Assembly: GCA_951406725.2 (NCBI GenBank) | Contig: OX597816.1 | Coordinates: forward strand, 62,496,001 to 62,560,000 | Direction of reading: 5' to 3' | DNA length: 64,000 nucleotides | Origin: Octopus vulgaris | Taxonomy: Eukaryota | Shown: positions 3,268 through 64,000 of the stretch, in pieces | Numbering within the stretch: the first letter of the stretch is position 1 | Layout: every line of letters begins with the position of its first letter | Program-made: the position numbers and the translations under genes | The notes under the pieces: model-generated | Seen by the model: only the letters and a program-made list of their open reading frames with translations | The model's database searches: none | What the model was told of the DNA's origin: nothing

Positions 3268-4006
3268 TTCCGTTTTTGTGATACGCAGGTTATTTATTTA
3301 AAGAATATTTTATTTGTATTTCCAGCAGATTGACCCATATTGTAGAGATCCAGAAGGAAGAATCCCTTTACCGCAGGCCAGTTTTTACTTGCATTCAACA
3401 ATAAATCCGTTCGCTTTAAAAACTCATGTGAATAAAGCTTTTTAAGCATTAAAACTAAAATAGCAAGTTTGATAATAAATTGCCGTTATATGAATTTGTA
3501 AACTAAACATTTGAGAAGTTCCAATGCAGGAAAATCTGGGCCCTTAAGTTACCATGTAACTGCTACCAGTTAACATTAAAAATAGTTAAAATAAAATTTA
3601 CTCAATTTTCTAAGAACAGATGCAGCCACACCATTTATTTCCCAATAATAAACAACTAAAATAAAAATGAAATTTAATTTCTGGTGGCTTAGCAAAAGGT
3701 TCTCTGTGAACAAAAGAGATTTGCTAATGATTTCTTTCGGAATCCAATCTCTTGTACAGAAGGTTTTTAAATTCCGTTCTGTTTCAGGGGCTTCAATAAG
3801 CTTCAGTCTACCATCTCGGTTCATATAATATTCGGTAAATTCAAAGCGATACAAACGATGAATTGCTGCATAGGAGGCTGGAACTAAGAACCACAAGATT
3901 ACGAAGTGAACTTCTCAAATACACAGCTTTGTTTGCGCCTTCATATTTGCCTATGAATCTTTCTAGAATAGAGTGGTACTAAAGAAAATTCTCCCCCATG
4001 GATATT

Positions 4007-4400
4007 TATTTGTTTATTGCCCACAAAGGGCTGAACATAGAGGGGACAAACAAGGACAGACAACGGGATTAAGCCGCTTACATCGACCCCAGTGCGTAAT
4101 TGGTACTTATTTAATCGACCCCGAAAGAATGAAAGGCAAAGTCGACCTCGGCGGTAAAGACAGACCAAATACCTATTTCTTTACTACCCACAAGAGGTTA
4201 AACACAGAGAGGACAAAGAAGGATAGACAAACGGATTAAGTCGATTATATCGACCCAAGTGCGTAACTGGTACTTATTTAATCGACCCTGAAAGGATGAA
4301 ATGTAAAGTCGACCTCGGCGGAATTTGAACTCAGAACGTAGCAGCAGACGAAATACGGAGACGCAATTCGCCCGGTGTGCAAATGATTCTGCCATCTCAC
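4007..4400 (-). mobile_element. SINE A dimer (full monomer plus 5'-truncated monomer)
   Basis: Junction at 4172/4173. A single TSD CCCCATGGATATT flanks the pair at 3994-4006 and 4401-4413. Confidence 0.85.
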
Positions 4401-4464
4401 CCCCATGGATATTGGCAATCTCTTATGGACTTGGATGTAGCTTAGCCACAAACTAAGAGACAAC

Positions 4465-4863
4465 CCTTTTCTACTCTAGGCACAAGGCCCGAAATATTGG
4501 GGGAGGGGGCCAGTCGATTAGATCGACCTCAGTACGCAAATGGTACGCAAATTTATCGACCCCAAAAGGATGAAAGGAAAAGTTGTCCTCGGCCGAATTT
4601 TAACTCAGAAGGTAAAGACAGACGAAATACTATTTCTTTATTGCCCACAAAGGGCTAAACATAGAGGGGGACAAACTAGGACAGACAAACGGATTAAGTC
4701 GATTACATCGACTCCAGTGCGTAACTGGTACTTAATTTATCAAACCCGAAAGGATGAAAGGCAAAGTCGACCTCGGCGGAATTTGAACTCAGAACGTAAC
4801 GGCAGACGAAATACGGCTACGCATTTCGCCCGGCGTGCTAACGTTTCTGCCAGCTCGCCGCCT
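4465..4863 (-). mobile_element. SINE A dimer, second monomer with an alternative 3' tail
   Basis: Junction GACGAAATAC|TATTTCTTTA at 4630/4631. Tail variant GGCCTTGTGCCTAGAGTAGAAAAG. Confidence 0.85.
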
Positions 4864-4883
4864 TAATTAAAAGACAATCCTAA

Positions 4884-5465: not shown

Positions 5466-5510
5466 AGTAAATTAAGGAATATTGTATGACATACTTAAGA
5501 CTGCAATATA

Positions 5511-5658
5511 TTTCTCTATATTTCTTACTTAATTTTAAAATGTTCATAATATACTGTATTGGTCTCTGTTCTTTCGCCCTGTATCTACCAAATGATCTCT
5601 AGAAGGTTCAGTAGTTAGAATATTCGGCTCACACCAACACACACACACACACACACAC
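5511..5658 (+). repeat. ~120-bp direct repeat, copy 1, followed by (CA)n
   Basis: Near-identical to 6781-6904. Confidence 0.9.
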
Positions 5659-6445: not shown

Positions 6446-6780
6446 TCTATGTGCGTGTGCGGTGTGTGCGGATGCATGTATGTAAGTGTTAATATTTATA
6501 ATTTTATATATGACATTAATCTCATTTTTGACTAATTTTGGTATGTTTTTTTTCTTCAATATTTTGCCTTCCATTTTATTAAAACTTCATTCATTCAATG
6601 TTTCTTTTTTGTCTGCACCTATTCGTTTTCTTTCTATCTTTCTTTACTTCTTTCTTTCTTTTATCCTCTTTCTTTTTCCTTCTATTCCTTTCGTTATTTC
6701 ACTTTTCTTCTCTTCTCACAAGCTTATCTCCTCCTTTCGTTTCGCTTGTTCTTATCTTGGTTTCTCTCCTTCATTCTTTA

Positions 6781-6897
6781 TTTCTCTATATTTCTTACTT
6801 AATTTTAAAATGTTCATAATATTCTATATTGGTCTCTGTTCTTTCGCCCTGTATCTACTAAATGATCTCTCGAAGGTTCAGTAGTTAGAATATTCGG

Positions 6898-9354: not shown

Positions 9355-9799
9355 ACTATATTGAACTATAAGTCTACCACTAAAACAACAACAAGACATT
9401 GCACCCTGTACCACAGACACTGACGCACTTACACTACTACACAGGTATTTTTACGCTGTCACTGTAATGTCACCTCGACTGTCAACACTTACACTGCAGT
9501 ACCATACGGTCGATACTAAACATCTACAACTACCACGCTTCTATCGTTTCTCAGTCTCTTTTAAGGCCACTATTTGCACTACCACTACAACACTGGCTGT
9601 ATTGAACTACTACAGAAGTATTATTCGTTGTTAGTGCACACACGTTACAACGTAGCTGCAACCACTTAAAGTGGTTGCTTTTACACTGCTGAGATTATAC
9701 AGCCACTAATAACTACACTGCAACAATCTATCAGTCGTTGCCGTAAAGCAAGTATTTACACGGCCTCTTCTACAACACTGATAGTACGGCACAATTACA

Positions 9800-10020
9800 T
9801 ATTTCTTTATTGGGGATAAACATAGAGGGGACAAACAAGGACAGACAAAGGGGTTAAGTCGATTACATCGACCTCAGTGCGTAACTGGTACTTAATTTAT
9901 CGACCCCGAAAGGATGAAAGGCAAATTCGACCTCGGCGGAATTTGAACTCGGAACGTAGCGACAGACGAAATACTGCTAAGCATTTCGCCCGGCGTTCTA
10001 ACGTTTCTGCCAGCTCGCCG
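9800..10020 (-). mobile_element. SINE family A, young full-length copy
   Basis: Intact A/B boxes. 12-bp TSD GGCACAATTACA at 9788-9799 and 10021-10032. Confidence 0.92.
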
Positions 10021-14835: not shown

Positions 14836-15073
14836 TGATTCACAGACCGGGCGTTGTGAGTGTTTATTGAGCGAAAACACCTAAGGCTCCACGAGCTCTA
14901 GAGGGGGGGGGAATCCGTGCTGTACTCTTTCGCCATAACTTTCTCTCACTCTTTCTTCTGTTGGCCTGCTCCATTAGCCAGCGAGCTGGCCTCATTTGAA
15001 GGCTAAAACAATGCGAAGCGCATTGTGACCAGCGATGTGTAGCAACATCTGATAGTCTGGTCGATCACGTGAT

Positions 15074-15542: not shown

Positions 15543-15817
15543 AAGCCTAGTCAGCCTCATGGGCCCGGTTTCCCGGTTTCTGTGGCGTATGTGTCCCCCA
15601 CCCGACTGGACGGGACACTAGTCTATCGCAGCGTTACTCAAGAAACAGGAAGAGAGAGTGAGAGAAAGTTGGGGTGAAACAGTACAACAGGGGTCGCCAC
15701 CACCTCCTGCCTCGTGTAGCTTTAGGTGTTTTCGCTCAATAAACACACACAACGCCCGGTCTGAGAATCGAAACAACGATCCTCCGACCGCGAGTTTGCT
15801 GCCCTAACCACTGGGCA
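15543..15817 (-). mobile_element. SINE family C
   Basis: Reverse complement matches 52616-52898. Confidence 0.88.
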
Positions 15818-17792: not shown

Positions 17793-18560
17793 AAATGGCA
17801 AGAAAACCCTCTCTATGGCAAATACCCAAAGAGAGCAAATAATGCAGATATTGACAAAGCCCTGACCCATCAATGACTAATGGCCTCTGGCTTAAAATCT
17901 GAAACAGAGGGGTTTATCATAGCAGCTCAAGATCAATGCCTACCAACAAGAAACTACCAGGCCAACATATTAAAGATCAGAAGCAGTCCAACGTGTCGTG
18001 TATGCCAGCAACAAAATGAAACCATTGACCATGTGGTCTCCAAGTGCAGTCTTCTAGCGCCTACAGAGTATCTCAACAGGCACGATAGAGCTGCACAATA
18101 TATTCACTGGGTAATCTGCAAAAACCTGGATTTGCCCCATGAAAAAAACTGGTGGGAACACAAACCACCCCCAGTGCTTGAAAATGACCACATCTCACTC
18201 CTCTGGAACTTCACCATTCAAACTGACAGAAAGATAGATGCAAATAGGCCAGACATCATATTGAAAGACTTCAAACAAAGAACATGCCTCCTCATTGATA
18301 TGACTGTCCCAATCGATATAAACGTATCTGTCAAGACCTACCAAAAACTGAGTAAATATAAAGATCTTGAAATAGAAATCAGCAAAATGTGGAACCTGAA
18401 GACTAAAACAATACCTGTTGTCATAGGTGCCCTGGGAATGATAGCAAAAGGGGCTGATAGCTACCTAACTCAGATACCAGGAAACCCAAAAATGGCAGAA
18501 ATTCAAAAGATAGTGCTCATGGGAACTGCTCATATCCTACGCAAAAAACTTTCTATGTAA
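17793..18560 (+). pseudogene. Zinc finger plus restriction-like endonuclease region of the RLE LINE (ORF 17880-18560 open, in-frame TGA at 17874)
   Basis: Frame continues upstream as KWQENPLYGKY...HQ*LMASGL, where the stop replaces a conserved Trp. Confidence 0.85.
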
Positions 18561-25912: not shown

Positions 25913-26692
25913 TAAGGGACTTCTAAAACAGCTTAGATATCCCTCTTGTAACCGTGATTCTATTCGAAGGATTGCTATGTGTAAGCGCTATCATGAAGTG
26001 GAAGATGAGGCTGGTCCCTCTTCATGGGATAGGAATAATATCCAAAACCAATTTCGCAAGGAGACATAAAACGTTAAGAATACTCGTGGAAGCAGTTATA
26101 ATAAGTCATAATAAGTTAAATCAGTGCGATGTTTGTGTTTGTAGGATGATATATAGAAAGAATAGTTTCCCTCGACATCTCCATCCGAGGAAGTTTGTTT
26201 TAGATTAACTTCGCAGGTAGTGAGGCCGTCAAAGAAATATCATCAGTTAGGAGTGTTTGAAGTGTGATAAAAAAAATCATATGAATCTAGAAAACCTTTG
26301 AAAAGTGACGCCCAGTTATAAGAAAAGAAGGATTGGTTTTTACATTTGCTTTTGTGATATAGATAACATTCTATTAATTCGAGTAACGTATTTAATAAAA
26401 CGGAGAGTGAACGAACTTTGATTACTTGTTGTAGATAACGAACATTTAAGAATAGTAACGAGATATATTGTTTTCAGATTTTGAGAAGAGTATTGTTAAG
26501 TAGTTTATGTTAGATGAATGGGGCGGTATTGGTTTGTTCATTACCCTATATCATACAAATAATTCGGATTTCGAACTATAATTTATACATATTTAATAAA
26601 CATATTTAAACTAATCTCGAATAAGGAGCGAGATAACGTTCACGTATCAATAATAAATGAGGATTAATAACTTATCAGCAGAAGTTACTTCT

Positions 26693-26884
26693 TGGAGTAT
26701 TTCATTCTTGAACAAATGATTTGTACGTTCTGTCATATATTAAGTATGAATCGTTTAAATGTAGAAGGGGTGAGAGTGAAGGAACAATGAAAGATTTTCA
26801 CTTGAATACTATGAAGTATTACTTTGAAGTAATTATATCGAAAGTAAACAGGGAACTGGAAGGTAGTAACATGTCGAAATACCA
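26693..26884 (+). repeat. Segment duplicated at 41241-41419
   Basis: High identity with one short indel. Confidence 0.9.
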
Positions 26885-39600: not shown

Positions 39601-39637
39601 GATGCAGGAGTGGCTGTGTGGTAAGGAGCTTGCTTCC
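39601..39637 (+). mobile_element. SINE B head, left part of a split copy
   Basis: GCAGGAGTGGCTGTGTGGTAAGGAGCTTGCTTCC, continuing at 41089. Confidence 0.85.
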
Positions 39638-41088
39638 GTGCATGCGTCACTCAGGGTGCACTTGGTTTGTCGTTTGTGTGCGAGGTTTTTTTTGGGGGTG
39701 ATGTACAATATATATATTTTTTGGGGTGATGTACTCAGGGGTGATGTACTCAGGGGTGATGTACTCAGACTTTAGCCTGCCTGAGTTGTCTTCAGCAGAG
39801 GAGGAGCTGGTAAGAGCGGTCATAAAGATGGACGGAGTGTTGGAGAAGACAAGAAGTTTTGCTGAAGCCACGGAGATGAAGCGAAGGGTGTTGGATTTGG
39901 CTGGCCTGAAGATGTATGAGATAATGGTACAGAAGGTGGGAGGTGACGTGAGGATGTCGCTCCCCCCAAGGCATTATGGAGCGGATGGAGAGAAAACCGA
40001 TCACCTATAAGGTGTTCTCGTTAAAAGGAAAAAAGGCCGAGCAGGTGGAAACTGAAACAGAAAAGACGCTAAGGGAGCGGTCAAAGAAAATAATATACAT
40101 AACTAAAGGAAGGAGATATGGAACAATGGTCGTCCAATTTAGGACAGTAGATGAGGCGAAGAGGCTGGCGAGTGTGGCGGTGAAAACAGAGGAAGTAGTG
40201 CTTCTGCTCACATACCTTGGAAGATGAGGGTAGAAGCAATCCCACCTGATATAGAGGTGGCTTGGGCGGCGGCGGCTGTCCTTGTTGGAAGTGAGGAGAA
40301 AGTGGCTGTCCTTCAAGCCACTGAAACAGAAGAAGGAGGGTGGAAAGGGAAGACACTAGAATTAAATATACAGACGGAGGACAACTGGAGAGTTTGGAAG
40401 AAACGGTGACATTGGGGAAGATTGTGCTGAGAGTGTGGGTAGAAGGCAGAGTACCACATTGTTTCAAATGTGGCCAAAAGGGCCACATTAGAGCATACTG
40501 CCCTCTACAGAGGACAATAGCAGAGGAAACAGTTGTGGAGACGGAATAGAAAAGAGAAGAAAAGAAAGACGGAGGAAAGGAGGAACAGGAGGAACAATGG
40601 AGAGTAATAGAGAGTAGAAGGAAGAGAAAAAAGAAAGAACAGTGAGTATGACGTGGTACCCCAATCAACTCCATCCCACCCAAGACCAATCGGACCCACT
40701 CTCCCCATACAGACACCAAACCCACCCACCCCGTTTCCCCACAGGAAAAAAAGAGCATATAGCTCAGAATTTAGAAGAACTCTCTCCCGGTGGAAAAGGT
40801 TACGAGAGAGTGCAGTCATGGAACGATAGTGGAACTGGAACAGAGACTAAAAGGAAATTAGTACTCAGAGGCGGCAAGTTGTGTTGCTCAGTGTTGGGTG
40901 ATTAGCATACTCTTCATATTTTCAACTATCACGCATGTTAACATTATTTTAATTTGTTTTTCATGTTCATTTTCATGTTTCATTCATAATATTATGTTTC
41001 ATTTTTATATGTTTTTAATGTTATATGTCCCCACATGTGTTGTAGTGCCCCCTGTATGTAATGCCTTTATGGAAGAAATATTGAAATA
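39638..41088 (+). mobile_element. ORF1-only (gag-like, CCHC knuckle) non-LTR element with Tx1-like 3' tail
   Basis: Frameshifted ORF1 with RVWVEGRVPHCFKCGQKGHIRAYCP, no EN/RT, tail TGTAATGCCTTTATGG..GAAATAAA, imperfect 15-bp TSD. Confidence 0.8.
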
Positions 41089-41647
41089 AAGAAACTTGCT
41101 TACCAATCACATAGTTCCGGGTTCAGTCCCACTGCGTGGCACCTTGGGCAAGTGTCTTCTACTACAGCCTTGGGCTGACCAAAGCCTTGTGAGTGGAGTT
41201 GGTAGACGGAAACAGAAGGAAGCCCATTGTATATATATCGTGGAGTAATTCATTCATGAAGAAATGATTTGTACGTTCTGTCATATATTAAGCATGAATC
41301 GTTTAAATGTAGAAGGAGTGAGAGTGAAGGAACAATGAAATATTTTCACCTGAATACTGTGAAGTAATTATATCGAAAGCAAAGTGGGAACTGGAAGGTA
41401 GCAACATGTCGAAATACCACTCATCGTATGTGTGTGTGTATGCATTTGTGTGTCTGTGCTTGCCTCCCCCCCAACATCGCTTGACAACCGATGTTGGTGT
41501 ATTTACGTCCCCGTAACTTAGCGTTTTGGCAAAGAGTAGGAAAGGATAAGTACTAGGCTTGTAAAGAATAAGTCCTGGAGTCCATTTTTTCGGCTAAAAG
41601 GTGGTACTCCGTCATGGCCCTAGTCAAAAGACTGAAGTAAAAGAATA
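41089..41647 (+). mobile_element. SINE B, remainder of the split copy, with a 179-bp insert in its microsatellite
   Basis: CTTGCTTACCAATCACATAGTTCCGGGTTCAGTCCC onward. Confidence 0.88.
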
Positions 41648-41968
41648 AATGAATATTCTGATTGGCATTATTCATCTTCATTCGTTTGAATTTGATTGTT
41701 TTATACTTCAACTTCATGGGAACAAGATGATGCTGTAGTTACCACTGGATGTAGATCATGAAAGCAGTTGAGAGCTGATTTTATGATCATGCAACCTGCA
41801 AGAAATAGCAGTTGTATATACCACAAATCAAACCATACAAGATGTGCCGACACCGTTTTCCTCCTAACGAGAAAAAAGTTACGTCTGTGTAGTGATGAAA
41901 AGTAATATTTATTTATAGAACTAATACTCAGTTCGTTCTAGAGTTAGTTCTTTGTTAGTTCTACCATA

Positions 41969-43898: not shown

Positions 43899-43902
<4 letters not shown>

Positions 43903-44001
43903 CCTGCTCGCTTAGCCAGCGGGGTGGTGTCATTCGAAGGCTAAAAGAATGCGAACGCATTGTGACCAGCGATGTGTAACAACATTTGATGGTCTGGTCG
44001 G
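43899..44001 (+). mobile_element. Isolated 3' tail module shared with 14961-15063
   Basis: GGCCTGCTC..TTAGCCAGC..GAAGGCTAAAA..GCATTGTGACCAGCGATGTGTA. Confidence 0.8.
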
Positions 44002-50045: not shown

Positions 50046-50548
50046 ACGAATGAACAGCAAATAACTACGGCACAGAGAGCCATGGAAAGATGTATGCTGT
50101 AAATACCTATTTCTTTACTACCCACAAGGGGCTAAACGCAGAGTGGAAAAAACAAGGACAGACAAACGGATTAAGTCGATTATATCGACCCCAGTGCGTA
50201 ACTGGTACTTAATTTATCGACCTCGAAAGGATGAAAGGTAAAGTCAACCTCGGCGGAATTTGAACTCAGAACGTAACGGCAGACGAAATACCACTAAACA
50301 TTTCGCCCGGCCTGGTAACGATTCTGCCAGCTCGCCGCCCTGTATGCTGTAAATACCGTTGCAGAAGAGTATTCAAAATGAGATAAGTTCACGAGAGAGT
50401 GGAATAAACGAGGTGTTTACAGAATGCCAAAATCACAAGTTTTACATGGTACACAGACAAGAGACACATGCATTTGTTGACTGGTATCCAAGAAAAAAGA
50501 TCAGGGAACTCTGATGGGTGATCTCCAACAGAAGATGGCGTGAAGATG
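50045..50548 (+). mobile_element. RTE-clade LINE C-terminal fragment, split by SINE A
   Basis: TTAQRAMERCML...DWYPR...RRWREDD. Confidence 0.7.
50108..50340 (-). mobile_element. SINE family A, young full-length copy
   Basis: TSD TGTATGCTGTAAATAC(C) at 50091 and 50341. Confidence 0.93.
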
Positions 50549-52615: not shown

Positions 52616-52898
52616 GGAGGCGCAACGGCCCAGTGGTTAGGGCAGCAGACTCGCAGTCGGAGGATCGCGGTTTCGATTCCCAGACCGGGCGTTGTGTGTG
52701 TTTATTGAGCGAAAAACACCTAAAGCTCCACGAGCCCCCGGAAGGGGGTGGTGGCGACCTCTGTTGTACTCTTTCGCCCCAACTTTCTCTCACTCTTTCT
52801 TCTTGTTTTTTGAGTAACGATGCTATGGACTGGCGTCCCGTCCAGCTGGGGGGAACACATAGGCCATAGAAACCGGGCCCATGAACCTGGCTAGGCGT
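52616..52898 (+). mobile_element. SINE family C, full length
   Basis: tRNA-like head GGCCCAGTGGTTAGGGCAGCAGACTCGC...GGTTTCGATTCCC, tail ATGGACTGGCGTCCCGTCCAGC...GAAACCGGG. Confidence 0.9.
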
Positions 52899-55290: not shown

Positions 55291-56387
55291 CATATATACA
55301 TACATACATATATACATATGCATGCATATATATTTCTATATATATATATATGTATATATAAATATATATGTATGCGTATATATATAATTCCATCTATCTA
55401 TCTCATATATATATATATGCATGTATATATCTCTCTGTCTGTCGCAATAAATTCTGTACCGAACAACACCGCCTAAGCAGGAGATAGAGATGTAAATCGC
55501 ATTAAGCTTCAAAACACAACTTTGATCATGAACTCTCTCTTACGTCTTTTGTGTTCCGTTTCCTTTTCCTTTTCTTCATTTTTCTTTTCGCTTTTCCTTT
55601 TATTCATCTTTTTTTTTTATTTTATTTTTCCCCAGTTCTTTTTTTTTTCTTTTTCTTCTTCTTATTCTATTTCATTTTCTTATTCTTGATTTATTACTGA
55701 TATCAATCAGCCTCCTATTGTAAATCGTTCAAATAGGAAGTGACTCTTATAATACAACATTAACAATCATCCTTGATTAGCAGACAGAAAATTTTAACGG
55801 GTGAATAGACGTTTAGTTCAAGATTTTAACAGAACCATTGTTAAAGTTACTAACCTGAACAATTCTTTCATATGAAACGATCTTGTATTCGCTAGTTAAG
55901 CGCAATCGCGTTGATATTGGTCCTGTTACCACTATTGTTTGTTGCTTTTCTTGTTATTATTTATTATTTTTGTTGTTGTCAGTTATGCTGTTTACTCGGC
56001 TATACTTTTTTATTATAGTTTTTATATCAGTAACGTTTTGTATATTTGTTTTTGTTCTTGGTTCTGATTCTCAGTATAAACAATGAACGATTATTATTTA
56101 TTTTGTTTTATTTCATATGATTTAATTCTATTTACTTTTGGAAATGGAAATTACTTTCAATTGACGTCGATACTGTAATCTTTTATTTCTAGTTACTAAA
56201 ATGTCCAGCTCCTGGTGTAATGTAGATATCAGAAGCTAAGTCGTGGACACTTTGTACTTGGGTGTAATAGTTTACGAGGCGAGAAATCGCTTTTCATTTT
56301 TTTTACCCCTGGCAGGATTGGAGCAACGTAAAATGAATTAACTTGCCCAAGGAAACAGTGCACGGTTTAGACCAGAAACTGAACTAA

Positions 56388-56619
56388 GGCGGCGACCTGG
56401 CAGAAACGTTTACACTGCGGGTGAAATGCTTTGCAGTATTTCGTCTGCCGCTATGTTCTGAGTTCAAATTCCGCCGAGGTCGACTTTGCCTTTCATCCCT
56501 TCGGGGTTGATAAATTAAGTACCAGTTACGCACTGGGGACGATGTGATCGACTTAATCCCTTTGTTTGTCCTTGTTTGTCCCTTCCATGTTTAGCCCCTT
56601 GTGGGCAATAAAGAAATAA
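56388..56619 (+). mobile_element. SINE family A, full length
   Basis: A box TGGCAGAAACG, B box GAGTTCAAATTCC, Tx1-like tail. Confidence 0.92.
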
Positions 56620-60918: not shown

Positions 60919-61347
60919 AGTGTGGGATAATCACGAGTGGACCGGCTCCAATCAAAGTTCTCTTCAATGAGGGATGAATAGGAGCTAAACTAGAATTTCA
61001 AATTTATACAAAAAGGGAGACTTAATGTTGTAGATGAACTTGTGGAATAATAATGAAATTTCCCTCACATCACAATCTACCATCTAAAATTAGGAGGGAT
61101 ATATCGTATCATATATGTCAAAGGATAATAAGCCTCGAAGAAAATGTCATGATTAATTGATGATAAAGAATGGAAAGCATTTAATCATAGTTCTTCTTTA
61201 TTAGAGTAATCCATGGGTTAAACAATAACAGCTAGTAATGCAACACGATCATCACTGGAACCTTCTGGATCATGAATAGTCTTGATCAGGTTGAGCTGGA
61301 GTTAAACAACGAATAAACTTAACGGCAACAGACTGTATTTCCTTCGT

Positions 61348-61523
61348 TTTTACTCTTTTACTTGTTCAGTCATTTGATTGTGGCCATGCTGTGGCACCGT
61401 CTTTAGTCGAGCAAATCGACCCCCAGGAATATTCTTTGTACTTATTCTATCGGAACCTTTCGCCGAACCGCTAAATTACGGGGACGTAAACACACCACCA
61501 TCGGTTGTCAAACACACAAACAT

Positions 61524-61554
<31 letters not shown>

Positions 61555-61564
61555 ACACACACAC

Positions 61565-61644
<80 letters not shown>

Positions 61645-61789
61645 AATACAACGGGCTTCTTTCTGTTTCCGTCTAACAAATCCACTCACAAGGCTTTGGT
61701 CGGCCCGAGGCTATAGTAGAAGGCACTTGTCCAAGGTGCCACAAAGTGGGACTGAACGCGGGACCATGTGGTTCGTAAGCAAGCTACTT
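61348..61789 (-). mobile_element. SINE B whose head is interrupted by the Tx1-like LINE
   Basis: On - strand it resumes at AAGTAGCTTGCTTACGAACC right after the LINE tail. Confidence 0.9.
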
Positions 61790-64000
61790 TATTTCATAAA
61801 TATTTGCCATGAAGGCATTACAAAGAGGGGACGAACAAGAACAGACAAACATAAAAGGGTGAAGTAGCTGTAGCGATTAAATATTACAATTTAAAATTAA
61901 CAATAATTTGATAAATATGTTTATATCTTTTGACTTAAGCGTTGCTCATTACAAATGAAATTTGTAATGGTTTCTCTGAAGGATAGGCATCCGACCATCA
62001 GGGTAGACCCCTTGCTTTTTCTTTCCTGTTTTTGGCTTCCACTTACCTGGTGCAAAACACTCCCAGCTTCCTCGCCACAGGCTTCCATCTTCTCATGAAT
62101 CTGTCTCGTGACAGGTACCTTTTCTCCAGCCTGATCTTATTACTGAGGTGGTAACTAAAAAAGTTAACCAATCCCTGGCCGTATATAAAGGCACCCGACA
62201 CTATGCCTCTCACACACGTCTTCCATACTGTTTCTTTCAGTATGGCTACTATGCAGAAAAAGCAAGACTTCCTTTCCCTGTTAGGGGAAGGGGGAGGCAC
62301 AATCTCGATGATAGATTCAGCTGATAGCTGTACTCTTCGCATCGATGACAACAGTTGCTTTACGAAAACTATCAGTCCCGTTAATTCCGGACACTCCACA
62401 AATGCGTGCAGGACGGTTTCCCTGTCCTGCCCGCACCTCGGACATGTCGGCGAGACGGCACTTCCGTGCCATGACAGTTTATCACGAGCAGGTAACGCCG
62501 CACAGAAGCACTGCCAAACCAGAGATTTTTGGTAATTGTACAGATACCCCGGCCCGAAAGTTCTCCGGAACATGTTGATTAACTGATTTTCATCGTAGTC
62601 CATGGTCTCTCCTAAGGCCTCATCGGACTTAACCTCCACTAACCCGCTATAGAAATCCGCGGTGGAACTCTTGTTGCCGGCATTGCCCGCCTGAGAGAGT
62701 AGCTGAAGTGCCTGGCGGCACTCCAACTACCAGTCCTCCAGCCTAGGTCTCTGCTTGATCCAATTACCAATGTCTGTTAAGGACGTTAATTGCGGAAGGT
62801 AGAACTGAACGTGCGGTGACCACACCAGCTCTCCATCCAGGTAAAGCTAGAGGTGCCTCAACCTTAACGCGAATTTTCGCATCCTCAGCCAAGGCATCCC
62901 TAGCCCACTCTTTAGCGGTTTCTGGCAGCTGACAGAGCGCTTCACGAGTGGTTTTCCTCCCTTCCACAAAAAGTGGAAAAGGATTCTCTCCAAATTGTTC
63001 AGCCACAAATCGGGGCAAGGTGATAACCGATGCTATAAACATCTGCACCACCTCCGCCTTTCCTGGCAAGGATAACACCCGCCCAGACCAGGTCTGGGTT
63101 AAAGCAATCACCTTGCTGGCCACCTCACCCCAATTTTTCTCTATCTGGAGGTCTGGCTCGAACCAGACTCCGAGCAGCTTAACAGGACCTTCCGTTCAAC
63201 GCCCCACGACGTTATTGGACGGCATCGGCTTGCTCCTCCAAGTGCCGAGCTGCAAACCAATTGACTTGTCCTTGTTAACCTTTGCTTCTGCCACTGCCTC
63301 GTAACTTGTGATAGCTTCTTCCACCACTGGAACCTGGCCTTCATCCGCTACGATGATGGATATGTCATCTGCGTACGCCATAGCTCCTCTTCCACACCAT
63401 AGATCATGCAGTGCGCCCCCTAGTGCCTCCAACCTCCGCAATAATGGCTTGAGAGCCAGTATATACAAAAGCGGGGACAGGGGATACCCCTCACGCACTG
63501 AGCGCTCGATCCTGAATGGCTTCGAAAGGAAACCATTCATTTTTACGACGGACTCGATGTCGCTGTACAACGCAGCAAACCATCCCCGGAAGGACCGCCG
63601 CCAAGTACTGATGGTCGACCCTATCGAATGCCTTAGACTGGTCTAAATGTACCAGTGCCCCCCCACCTGCGCCTGAAAGCTTCCCCACCCTCTCTAAGGA
63701 GTAGCGTATACGGTGGAGATGGTCATGAATCGTCCTACCCGGGATAGCGCACGTTTGCGTTTCCCCGACAAGTTTGTCCACGACCCGCGCCAAACTTTTT
63801 GCTAGCACCTTGGCCATAATCTTTAACTCTGTGTTCAACAGAGTTATGGGCCTCAAGTTCCCTATCTCGTCCCCCTTGCTCGAGTCCTTCCTGATCAACG
63901 TCACCATCCCACGGCTCGCAGATTGGGAATTCCCCCATTCTGCTGCCAAGTGGCGTAGACGCTGGCCAGCAAGTGCCCGAACAAGTCTGGCATAGTTTTG
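61790..64000 (-). mobile_element. Tx1/L1-clade LINE (ORF2 pseudogene plus 3' UTR), runs off the window
   Basis: RPITLLNTELKI, LDQSKAFDRVDH, GYPLSPLLY, YADDI, LLGVWF, CPRC..ETVLHAFVEC, several frameshifts. Confidence 0.92.

Follow-up and report, generated by a model that had tools for sequence, protein, structure and literature searches.

A dead ORF1-only element in Octopus vulgaris that shares a terminal motif and a SINE insertion site with an L1/Tx1-group LINE

TRE5-A.2 of Dictyostelium is an ORF2-deleted, ORF1-keeping derivative of a position-specific element of the L1 group; it is moved in trans, takes sites upstream of tRNA genes and hardly differs from its parent. HAL1 elements carry a 3′ poly(A) tail, and HeT-A is targeted to chromosome ends, with a zinc-knuckle ORF1 and a long UTR. 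In the available text of the literature HAL1 is described as non-autonomous and as encoding ORF1p only (PMC5753468, PMC5786205); it derives from the L1 clade, and stands beside HeT-A (Jockey) and Ag-Sponge (CR1) as a non-autonomous LINE that has kept its ORF1 (PMC5786205). The ORF1p of mammalian L1 is of type II, and in animals other than mammals a type I ORF1 is said to agree with the Tx1 clade (PMC5203782). LINE targets include tRNA genes and transposons (PMC4640811). Tx1-clade LINEs target other transposons, and in crocodilians Tx1-Mar carries SINEU to the same sites (PMC4494074). In the accessible portions of three papers on octopus repeats L1-Tx1 is given only as counts or is absent (PMC13282606, PMC8967140, PMC9115989). 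Our literature search found no Tx1-derived ORF1-only element and no LINE that targets an octopus SINE; repeat libraries (Repbase, Dfam and that of O. vulgaris) lay outside that search and may hold such a family.

Here we describe an element at 39638-41088 (i.e. 1451 bp) of a 64-kb window of O. vulgaris DNA, the window being the whole of the stretch analysed. The window is AT-rich, dense in microsatellites and SINEs, and has no long ORFs. The element splits a SINE, which breaks off in its head at 39637 and resumes at 41089 with an overlap of 15 nt. We think it probable that the insert is a dead member of an Octopus family of non-LTR retrotransposons that are ORF1-only, site-specific, non-autonomous and moved in trans. 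The features of the locus are collected in Table 1.

Like HAL1, which is mobilised in trans, the element encodes ORF1p only, lacks ORF2 and has a target duplication. It differs in that its ORF1 is of type I, poly(A) is missing, its 3′ end bears a specific motif in common with a LINE, and its insertion is apparently site-specific. The first-pass annotation had called it HAL1-like; this is apt as an analogy (i.e. ORF1 only) but not as membership, the ORF1 being of type I and not of the mammalian L1 type, and the poly(A) missing. The element would work in the manner of HAL1 or HeT-A, yet by ORF1 type and tail it is not itself a HAL1. With the HAL1, HeT-A and Ag-Sponge kind it has in common an ORF1 joined to a LINE 3′ end, the absence of ORF2 and, as its duplication indicates, insertion by retrotransposition, although HeT-A and Ag-Sponge belong to other clades and the octopus element, of 1.45 kb, goes into the head of a SINE. 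It differs from TRE5-A.2 in being inserted inside tRNA-like sequence and in having only a terminal motif in common with its candidate partner. Closer in their targeting are Tx1-Mar and SINEU of crocodilians and Tx1L in Tx1D of Xenopus, where a Tx1 LINE targets a transposon and a non-autonomous partner shares the target; SINEU, however, is non-coding with an snRNA head and targets DNA transposons, whereas the octopus element encodes ORF1 and its target is a tRNA-derived SINE (PMC4494074, in the text available).

Table 1. Coordinates of the element, its host SINE and the neighbouring LINE within the window.
Feature	Position	Strand	Basis or remark
Host SINE, 5′ part: tRNA-headed, A-box-like head up to the insertion site	39601..39637	+	Aligns to the 5′ end of other SINE copies
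Target-site duplication, left copy	39623..39637	+	12/15 identical to 41089-41103
Element 5′ UTR, G/T-rich	39638..39758	+	Fold z -0.59 for 39638-39770, no significant fold
Perfect 15-bp tandem triplication across the ORF1 start codon	39723..39768	+	TRF: period 15, 3.1 copies, 100% match
Broken ORF1, predicted type I	39759..40829	+	Homology to Octopus proteins runs from the ATG as far as about 40790
First RRM-like domain (predicted)	39979..40224	+	Homology to P0007 residues 97-183
Second RRM-like/ferredoxin-fold domain (predicted)	40221..40450	+	Homology to P0007 residues 182-266
CCHC zinc knuckle, C-x2-C-x4-H-x4-C	40460..40501	+	Pfam PF00098 zf-CCHC, E 1.2e-4, 22.4 bits, above cutoff
Element 3′ UTR, T-rich (40938-41037 is 56% T); remnants of ORF2 not detected	40830..41088	+	
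Terminal motif in common with the LINE; possible small hairpin, one pair broken here	41049..41088	+	33/41 identity
Target-site duplication, right copy	41089..41103	+	SINE alignment
Host SINE, 3′ part: B-box-like motif, CCTTGGG CORE-like motif, microsatellite, 3′ body	41089..41657	+	SINE alignment
Unrelated insert inside the host SINE 3′ part	41238-41419		Within the + strand SINE part
SINE 3′ part downstream of the LINE	61347..61789	-	Begins where the 15-bp target begins
LINE terminal motif	61790..61830	-	Adjoins the same SINE nucleotide
Broken L1/Tx1-group LINE, 3′ 2.2 kb: RT, zf-RVT, 253-nt 3′ UTR; candidate partner	64000-61790	-	Cut by the window edge

The ORF1 is broken into pieces at about 39759-39966, 39964-40224, 40221-40380 and 40382-40750, lying in three frames, so that the frameshifted gag-like ORF with a CX2CX4HX4C knuckle that had been described is borne out both by the frames and by the Pfam match to the knuckle. 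The reading frame shifts at least three times and is interrupted by stops at 40547, 40643 and 40649, and this copy is therefore dead. Mapping of homologues indicates that ORF1, though broken, is complete from the ATG to the C-terminal tail; its end is uncertain, with candidate stops at 40827-40829 or 40903-40905.

The architecture of the protein was approached through its homologue P0007, which is 43% identical to three of the window pieces. An AlphaFold model of P0007 made with a 23-row alignment (mean pLDDT 76) has two compact domains N-terminal to the knuckle, and the best Foldseek matches of the model are tandem-RRM proteins (E 7.7e-6). In VIA alignments of P0007, residues 97-183 superimpose on the La RRM (Z 9.0, rmsd 2.4, 79 residues aligned) and residues 182-266 on an ACT/ferredoxin-type fold (Z 8.8, rmsd 2.6, 79 residues aligned). 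An Atlas cluster at 0.90 comprises two ZCCHC3-type RNA-binding domains and a CCHC; an Atlas search with P0005 returned nothing above 0.82. When an alignment profile of ORF1 was compared with the PDB, zinc knuckles were the sole matches. Transposase_22 was absent by Pfam from the four ORF1 pieces of the window and from 25 homologues. As modelled on its homologues, the ORF1p is of type I, with two RRM-like domains and one CCHC knuckle.

The 15-bp repeats noted earlier in the 5′ region are present, and the ATG of ORF1 (39759) sits in frame inside them, but they should probably not be taken for a feature of the family. Survival of perfect repeat identity through 8-10% decay has a probability of 0.01-0.02, and the relatives P0005 and P0006 begin at the last 15-bp unit; for both reasons the triplication is probably private to this copy and arose by later slippage.

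The interrupted host belongs to a SINE of about 400 bp that is present repeatedly across the window. Its tRNA-like head and CCTTGGG liken it by description to the tRNA-CORE SINEs of Octopus of the OR2 type, the family name OR2 being a lead only. In the available text of the sources, CCTTGGG is a motif described for CORE domains (PMC5786205), OR2 of Octopus is classed as a CORE SINE (PMC4758252), and tRNA-Core SINEs are major in octopus (PMC8967140). ARAGORN found no tRNA genes in the window, although the SINE alignment shows tRNA-like boxes and CCTTGGG, and there was no tRNA among the 150 of 266 Rfam matches listed, all of which were microsatellite-driven miRNA or snoRNA below gathering. By our reading of the alignment the insertion site appears to fall within the tRNA-like head, with the A-box-like motif on one side of it and the B-box-like motif on the other.

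Both halves of the host are diverged from the majority of eight uninterrupted copies (10.8% for the 5′ half and 8.5% for the 3′ half), those eight copies being 1.8-10.4% from the majority themselves. Each copy of the duplication departs at two positions from what most other copies of the SINE have. With a decay of 8-10% in each copy, the probability of three or more mismatches in 15 is 0.40-0.55; given this expectation, we take the imperfect 15-bp repeat that had been remarked upon to be an aged target-site duplication. The first two A nucleotides of its right copy double as the end of AATAAA, so that the length of the duplication is 13-15 bp. The element has no poly(A) or A-run at its 3′ end, the terminus being the AATAAA that overlaps the target.

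At the edge of the window lies a second, larger retrotransposon, whose 5′ half and ORF1 fall beyond position 64000. Pfam identifies RVT_1 (E 3e-10 and 7e-8) and zf-RVT (E 4.7e-7) in this LINE, and its PDB matches are L1 ORF2p; the RT is of the L1 group with a C-terminal zf-RVT, and its motifs are ones that we take to be like those of Xenopus Tx1. The Tx1 label of both LINE and element is thus indirect, resting on this presumed likeness of RT motifs, on the targeting behaviour and on the fact that the ORF1 carried by the short element is of type I.

The tails of the two elements match, as had been claimed, and the match is confined to their very ends. Over the last 41 nt the element and the LINE are identical at 33 positions, with an alignment score of 40 that was reached in none of 2000 shuffles (mean 11.5); the next-best site for the tail alignment in the window scores 27. 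A joint tail pattern occurs at two places in the window and not at all in 100 shuffles. Detectable sharing is limited to the last 41-54 nt. Upstream of this the likeness of the UTRs is not significant: for nucleotides 300-50 from the end, 34-41 of 400 block shuffles reach the score, and for nucleotides 100-50, 22-44 of 400. Homology of the whole UTR with the LINE (p about 0.06-0.11 at best) was not accepted. A hairpin in the tail (z -1.85 in the LINE, and 0.26 in the element with one pair broken) is only suggestive of conservation.

The target site is also held in common, in agreement with the earlier claim. Both element and LINE finish in GAAATA immediately before the first base of the 15-bp target, and thus end at the same nucleotide of the same SINE family. 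Nine copies of the SINE have a recognisable site, and the two that are interrupted are broken at the identical base; the chance that a random second insertion would strike the same base in the same orientation is about 8e-5. Both of the tail-bearing insertions in the window (2/2) are at that base, and site specificity rests on just these two, which are too few for a published criterion of target preference, namely that more than 20% of copies are flanked by one repeat (PMC4494074, as far as its available text goes).

A shared site could also reflect one ancestral insertion instead of repeated targeting, had the junction of tail and SINE been copied within a composite SINE unit. One substitution is common to both downstream SINE flanks and absent from the other aligned copies, and in age the elements are roughly on a par with the SINE. 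Yet one shared change in 140 nt would be expected by chance about 1 time in 5 (a hand estimate), and the two flanks differ at many other positions. Moreover the two inserts differ throughout except in the last ~45 nt, the short element has a target duplication of its own, and the insert sets the promoter boxes 1.45 kb apart, which should stop transcription of the SINE type. We therefore regard copying of a single ancestral junction as very improbable.

There was no sign of the missing ORF2, in agreement with the report of neither endonuclease nor RT in the 1.45-kb insert. Pfam found neither domain in the four ORF1 pieces nor in six stop-free pieces of the 3′ region, and when the three plus frames of the element were compared with the three frames of the LINE the best E was 0.09, located at the shared tail. 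A candidate remnant of the ORF2 C-terminus at 40758-40826 was rejected; it gave no alignment to the last 227 aa of the LINE, and its DNA score was not above block shuffles.

As the two UTRs show no significant likeness beyond about 50 nt upstream, the element is not a simple deletion of the neighbouring LINE. It might instead be a one-off deletion product of a sister, i.e. a full-length copy of another SINE-targeting Tx1-like element that was inserted here and later lost ORF2 in the genome, its relatives then being ordinary autonomous copies. The distance from candidate stop to 3′ end is alike in the element and the LINE (259 and 253 nt) and the last 330 nt are roughly collinear, as would be so for the UTR of a sister family, although the collinearity is not significant. 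The ORF1-to-tail junction is known from a single copy, the relatives being protein records, and the abundance of L1-Tx1 in O. vulgaris (80 families and 56 Mb in the accessible portion of PMC13282606) would give many chances for such an event. Against this, a chance deletion must spare the whole of ORF1 and the whole UTR and yet remove ORF2 cleanly at both ends without a trace; if unselected, it would need both breakpoints to fall in short windows. So rare a product in one 64-kb window would be far likelier were it a repeated family, and on these grounds we favour a family over an accident. Long copies of LINEs are usually 5′-truncated, and two of the three close relatives keep the start-codon region, which is easier for a short element. 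A one-off deletion is in our view unlikely.

Restriction of the sharing to the last ~45 nt is also what a swap of tails would give. The element might then be a by-product of integration, made from a spliced or template-switched RNA, possibly combining the ORF1 of one LINE family with the tail of another, and put into the genome on one or a few occasions with no family arising from it. Exchange of tails is documented for SINEs (PMC5786205, in the text available). About 200 nt of the element's own T-rich UTR nevertheless lie between ORF1 and the shared motif with no visible seam, and dispersed relatives with neutral-like differences fit a family at least equally, so that we consider such a by-product decidedly unlikely.

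The reading as a family draws on 25 homologues of ORF1 (clusters at 50% identity) in three Octopus species. Of these, 21 were looked up, and all 15 that carried an organism annotation are from Octopus (bimaculoides, vulgaris or sinensis). The ORF piece at 39952-40227 is 66% identical to A0A0L8GU38 of O. bimaculoides. The closest relatives of the window pieces are P0005 (76% over 178 aa), P0020 (66% over 164 aa) and P0006 (58% over 151 aa); P0005 and P0006 have the same ATG and first four residues as the start at 39759, and P0020 follows the C-terminal half. A word-index protein search with residues 1-200 of P0005 returned P0005 itself only.

Nine of the 25 homologues entered a comparison of the share of conservative changes. 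For P0005, P0020 and P0006 against the window this share is 0.33-0.36, and neutral decay simulated at 7-13% per copy gives 0.29-0.35; for six more distant homologues it is 0.37-0.52. By this protein-level proxy there is no sign of selection among the close ORF1 copies, the differences of which fit neutral decay, and 7-13% per copy is the same range as for the host SINE. A tree was made for the first domain, with 19 rows (seven homologues with short or no overlap being left out); in it the piece from the window clusters with P0005 and P0006, with support of 99/97 and 98/96. This grouping, together with the neutral-like character of the relatives, indicates that copies of ORF1 were made to several places at a time close to the age of the host SINE. 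The three dispersed close relatives, known as protein records, would fit a dispersed family.

None of the 25 homologues has a Pfam endonuclease or RT domain, which is weak evidence, as ORF1 gene models normally lack ORF2 domains even in autonomous elements. Fused ORF1-ORF2 gene models of 665-2000 aa were not found among 8000 scored candidates, and this too is weak. A search of bacterial and archaeal genomes for related DNA (as contaminant contigs) gave no matches, and none of 398 pattern matches was confirmed. The homologue P0017 is on a contig of 1450 nt, close to the length of the element, and was treated as uninterpretable.

Several gene models fuse members of the ORF1 family to unrelated sequence, with C2H2 zinc fingers in P0005 and LDL-receptor repeats in P0019, and P0006 is also among the fused models. 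The family thus leaks into octopus gene models as fusions to zinc-finger or LDL-receptor exons. The fusions in P0005, P0006 and P0019 are probably artefacts of annotation, though they might reflect exonisation of the family into octopus zinc-finger genes. P0016 and P0022 have in common an extra C-terminal region after a low-complexity tail, a region that the window ORF1 appears to lack.

The claim that the element belongs to a non-autonomous family moved by site-specific Tx1 machinery accords with its ORF1-only anatomy, the shared tail, the same insertion nucleotide, the target duplication and the dispersed relatives of ORF1; the choice of the neighbouring LINE as mobiliser fares less well, since the UTRs share the last ~45 nt only. 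For a family moved in trans, we suggest the following route. A Tx1-like LINE that targets the SINE, either from the neighbour's family or from a sister family, would supply an ORF2 protein that binds the RNA of the element at its terminal motif. The endonuclease of the partner would nick the SINE in its head, between the motifs that resemble the A and B boxes, and target-primed reverse transcription would start at the AATAAA end, possibly aided by the two A nucleotides that element and target have in common; another nick, at a distance of 13-15 nt, would generate the duplication. The element's own ORF1 protein, with its two RRM-like domains, zinc knuckle and basic tail, could coat and chaperone its RNA in cis, and this would be a likely reason for the retention of ORF1 after the loss of ORF2. 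Such a family most likely originated by an old internal deletion in a Tx1-like LINE, with the UTR diverging since. The abundant SINE would offer many landing sites at low cost. Insertion of the present copy would have occurred roughly 7-13% divergence ago, and it would have been decaying since.

Such elements are listed for L1, Jockey and CR1 only (PMC5786205, as far as available); a case of Tx1 type that inserts sequence-specifically would make a fourth origin, and would support the notion that ORF1p gives an advantage in cis worth keeping when ORF2 is lost. Partner and dependent have no more than ~45 nt and a single target base in common, and the pair thereby points to the minimal RNA signal that L1-group ORF2p may recognise stringently. 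A LINE targeting the head of an abundant SINE would cap the activity of the SINE by splitting its promoter. A bolder proposal, that Octopus harbours a whole radiation of long-lived, selected ORF1 lineages without ORF2 that ride on SINE-targeting Tx1 LINEs by means of a ~45-nt tail, we regard as rather doubtful; if true, it would be a parasitism of three tiers (SINE target, site-specific LINE and protein-coding hyperparasite) and the Tx1 counterpart of the HeT-A radiation. The element is a known type of parasite in a group for which we found no report, its family may already sit unremarked in repeat libraries, and its relevance is mainly for specialists in transposons.

We note some further repeats in the window. 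The microsatellite of the split host SINE contains the second insert of ~190 bp (41238-41419), which has a sibling at 26690-26884 that is 87% identical. On the + strand, 17877-18560 is an open frame of 227 aa that belongs to the 3′ portion of a different LINE (zf-RVT, E 1e-5), and its motifs presumably recall the restriction-like endonuclease of the R4/Dong type. The elements at 1037-1382 and 1564-1854 are self-complementary (85% and 77% to their own reverse complements), i.e. MITE-like or fold-back. A direct duplication of 119 bp with 96.6% identity (5509-5627 and 6779-6897) brackets a long microsatellite, and is possibly a young local duplication or a feature of the assembly. A second SINE-like family is found at 4006-4868, 9792-10020, 50101-50345 and 56382-56619, with partial copies arranged head to tail at 4007-4321 (period 167). 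A third, with a tRNA-like head, lies at 14837-15063, 15545-15816, 43900-44000 and 52628-52896, and part of it is translated inside the gene model P0019.
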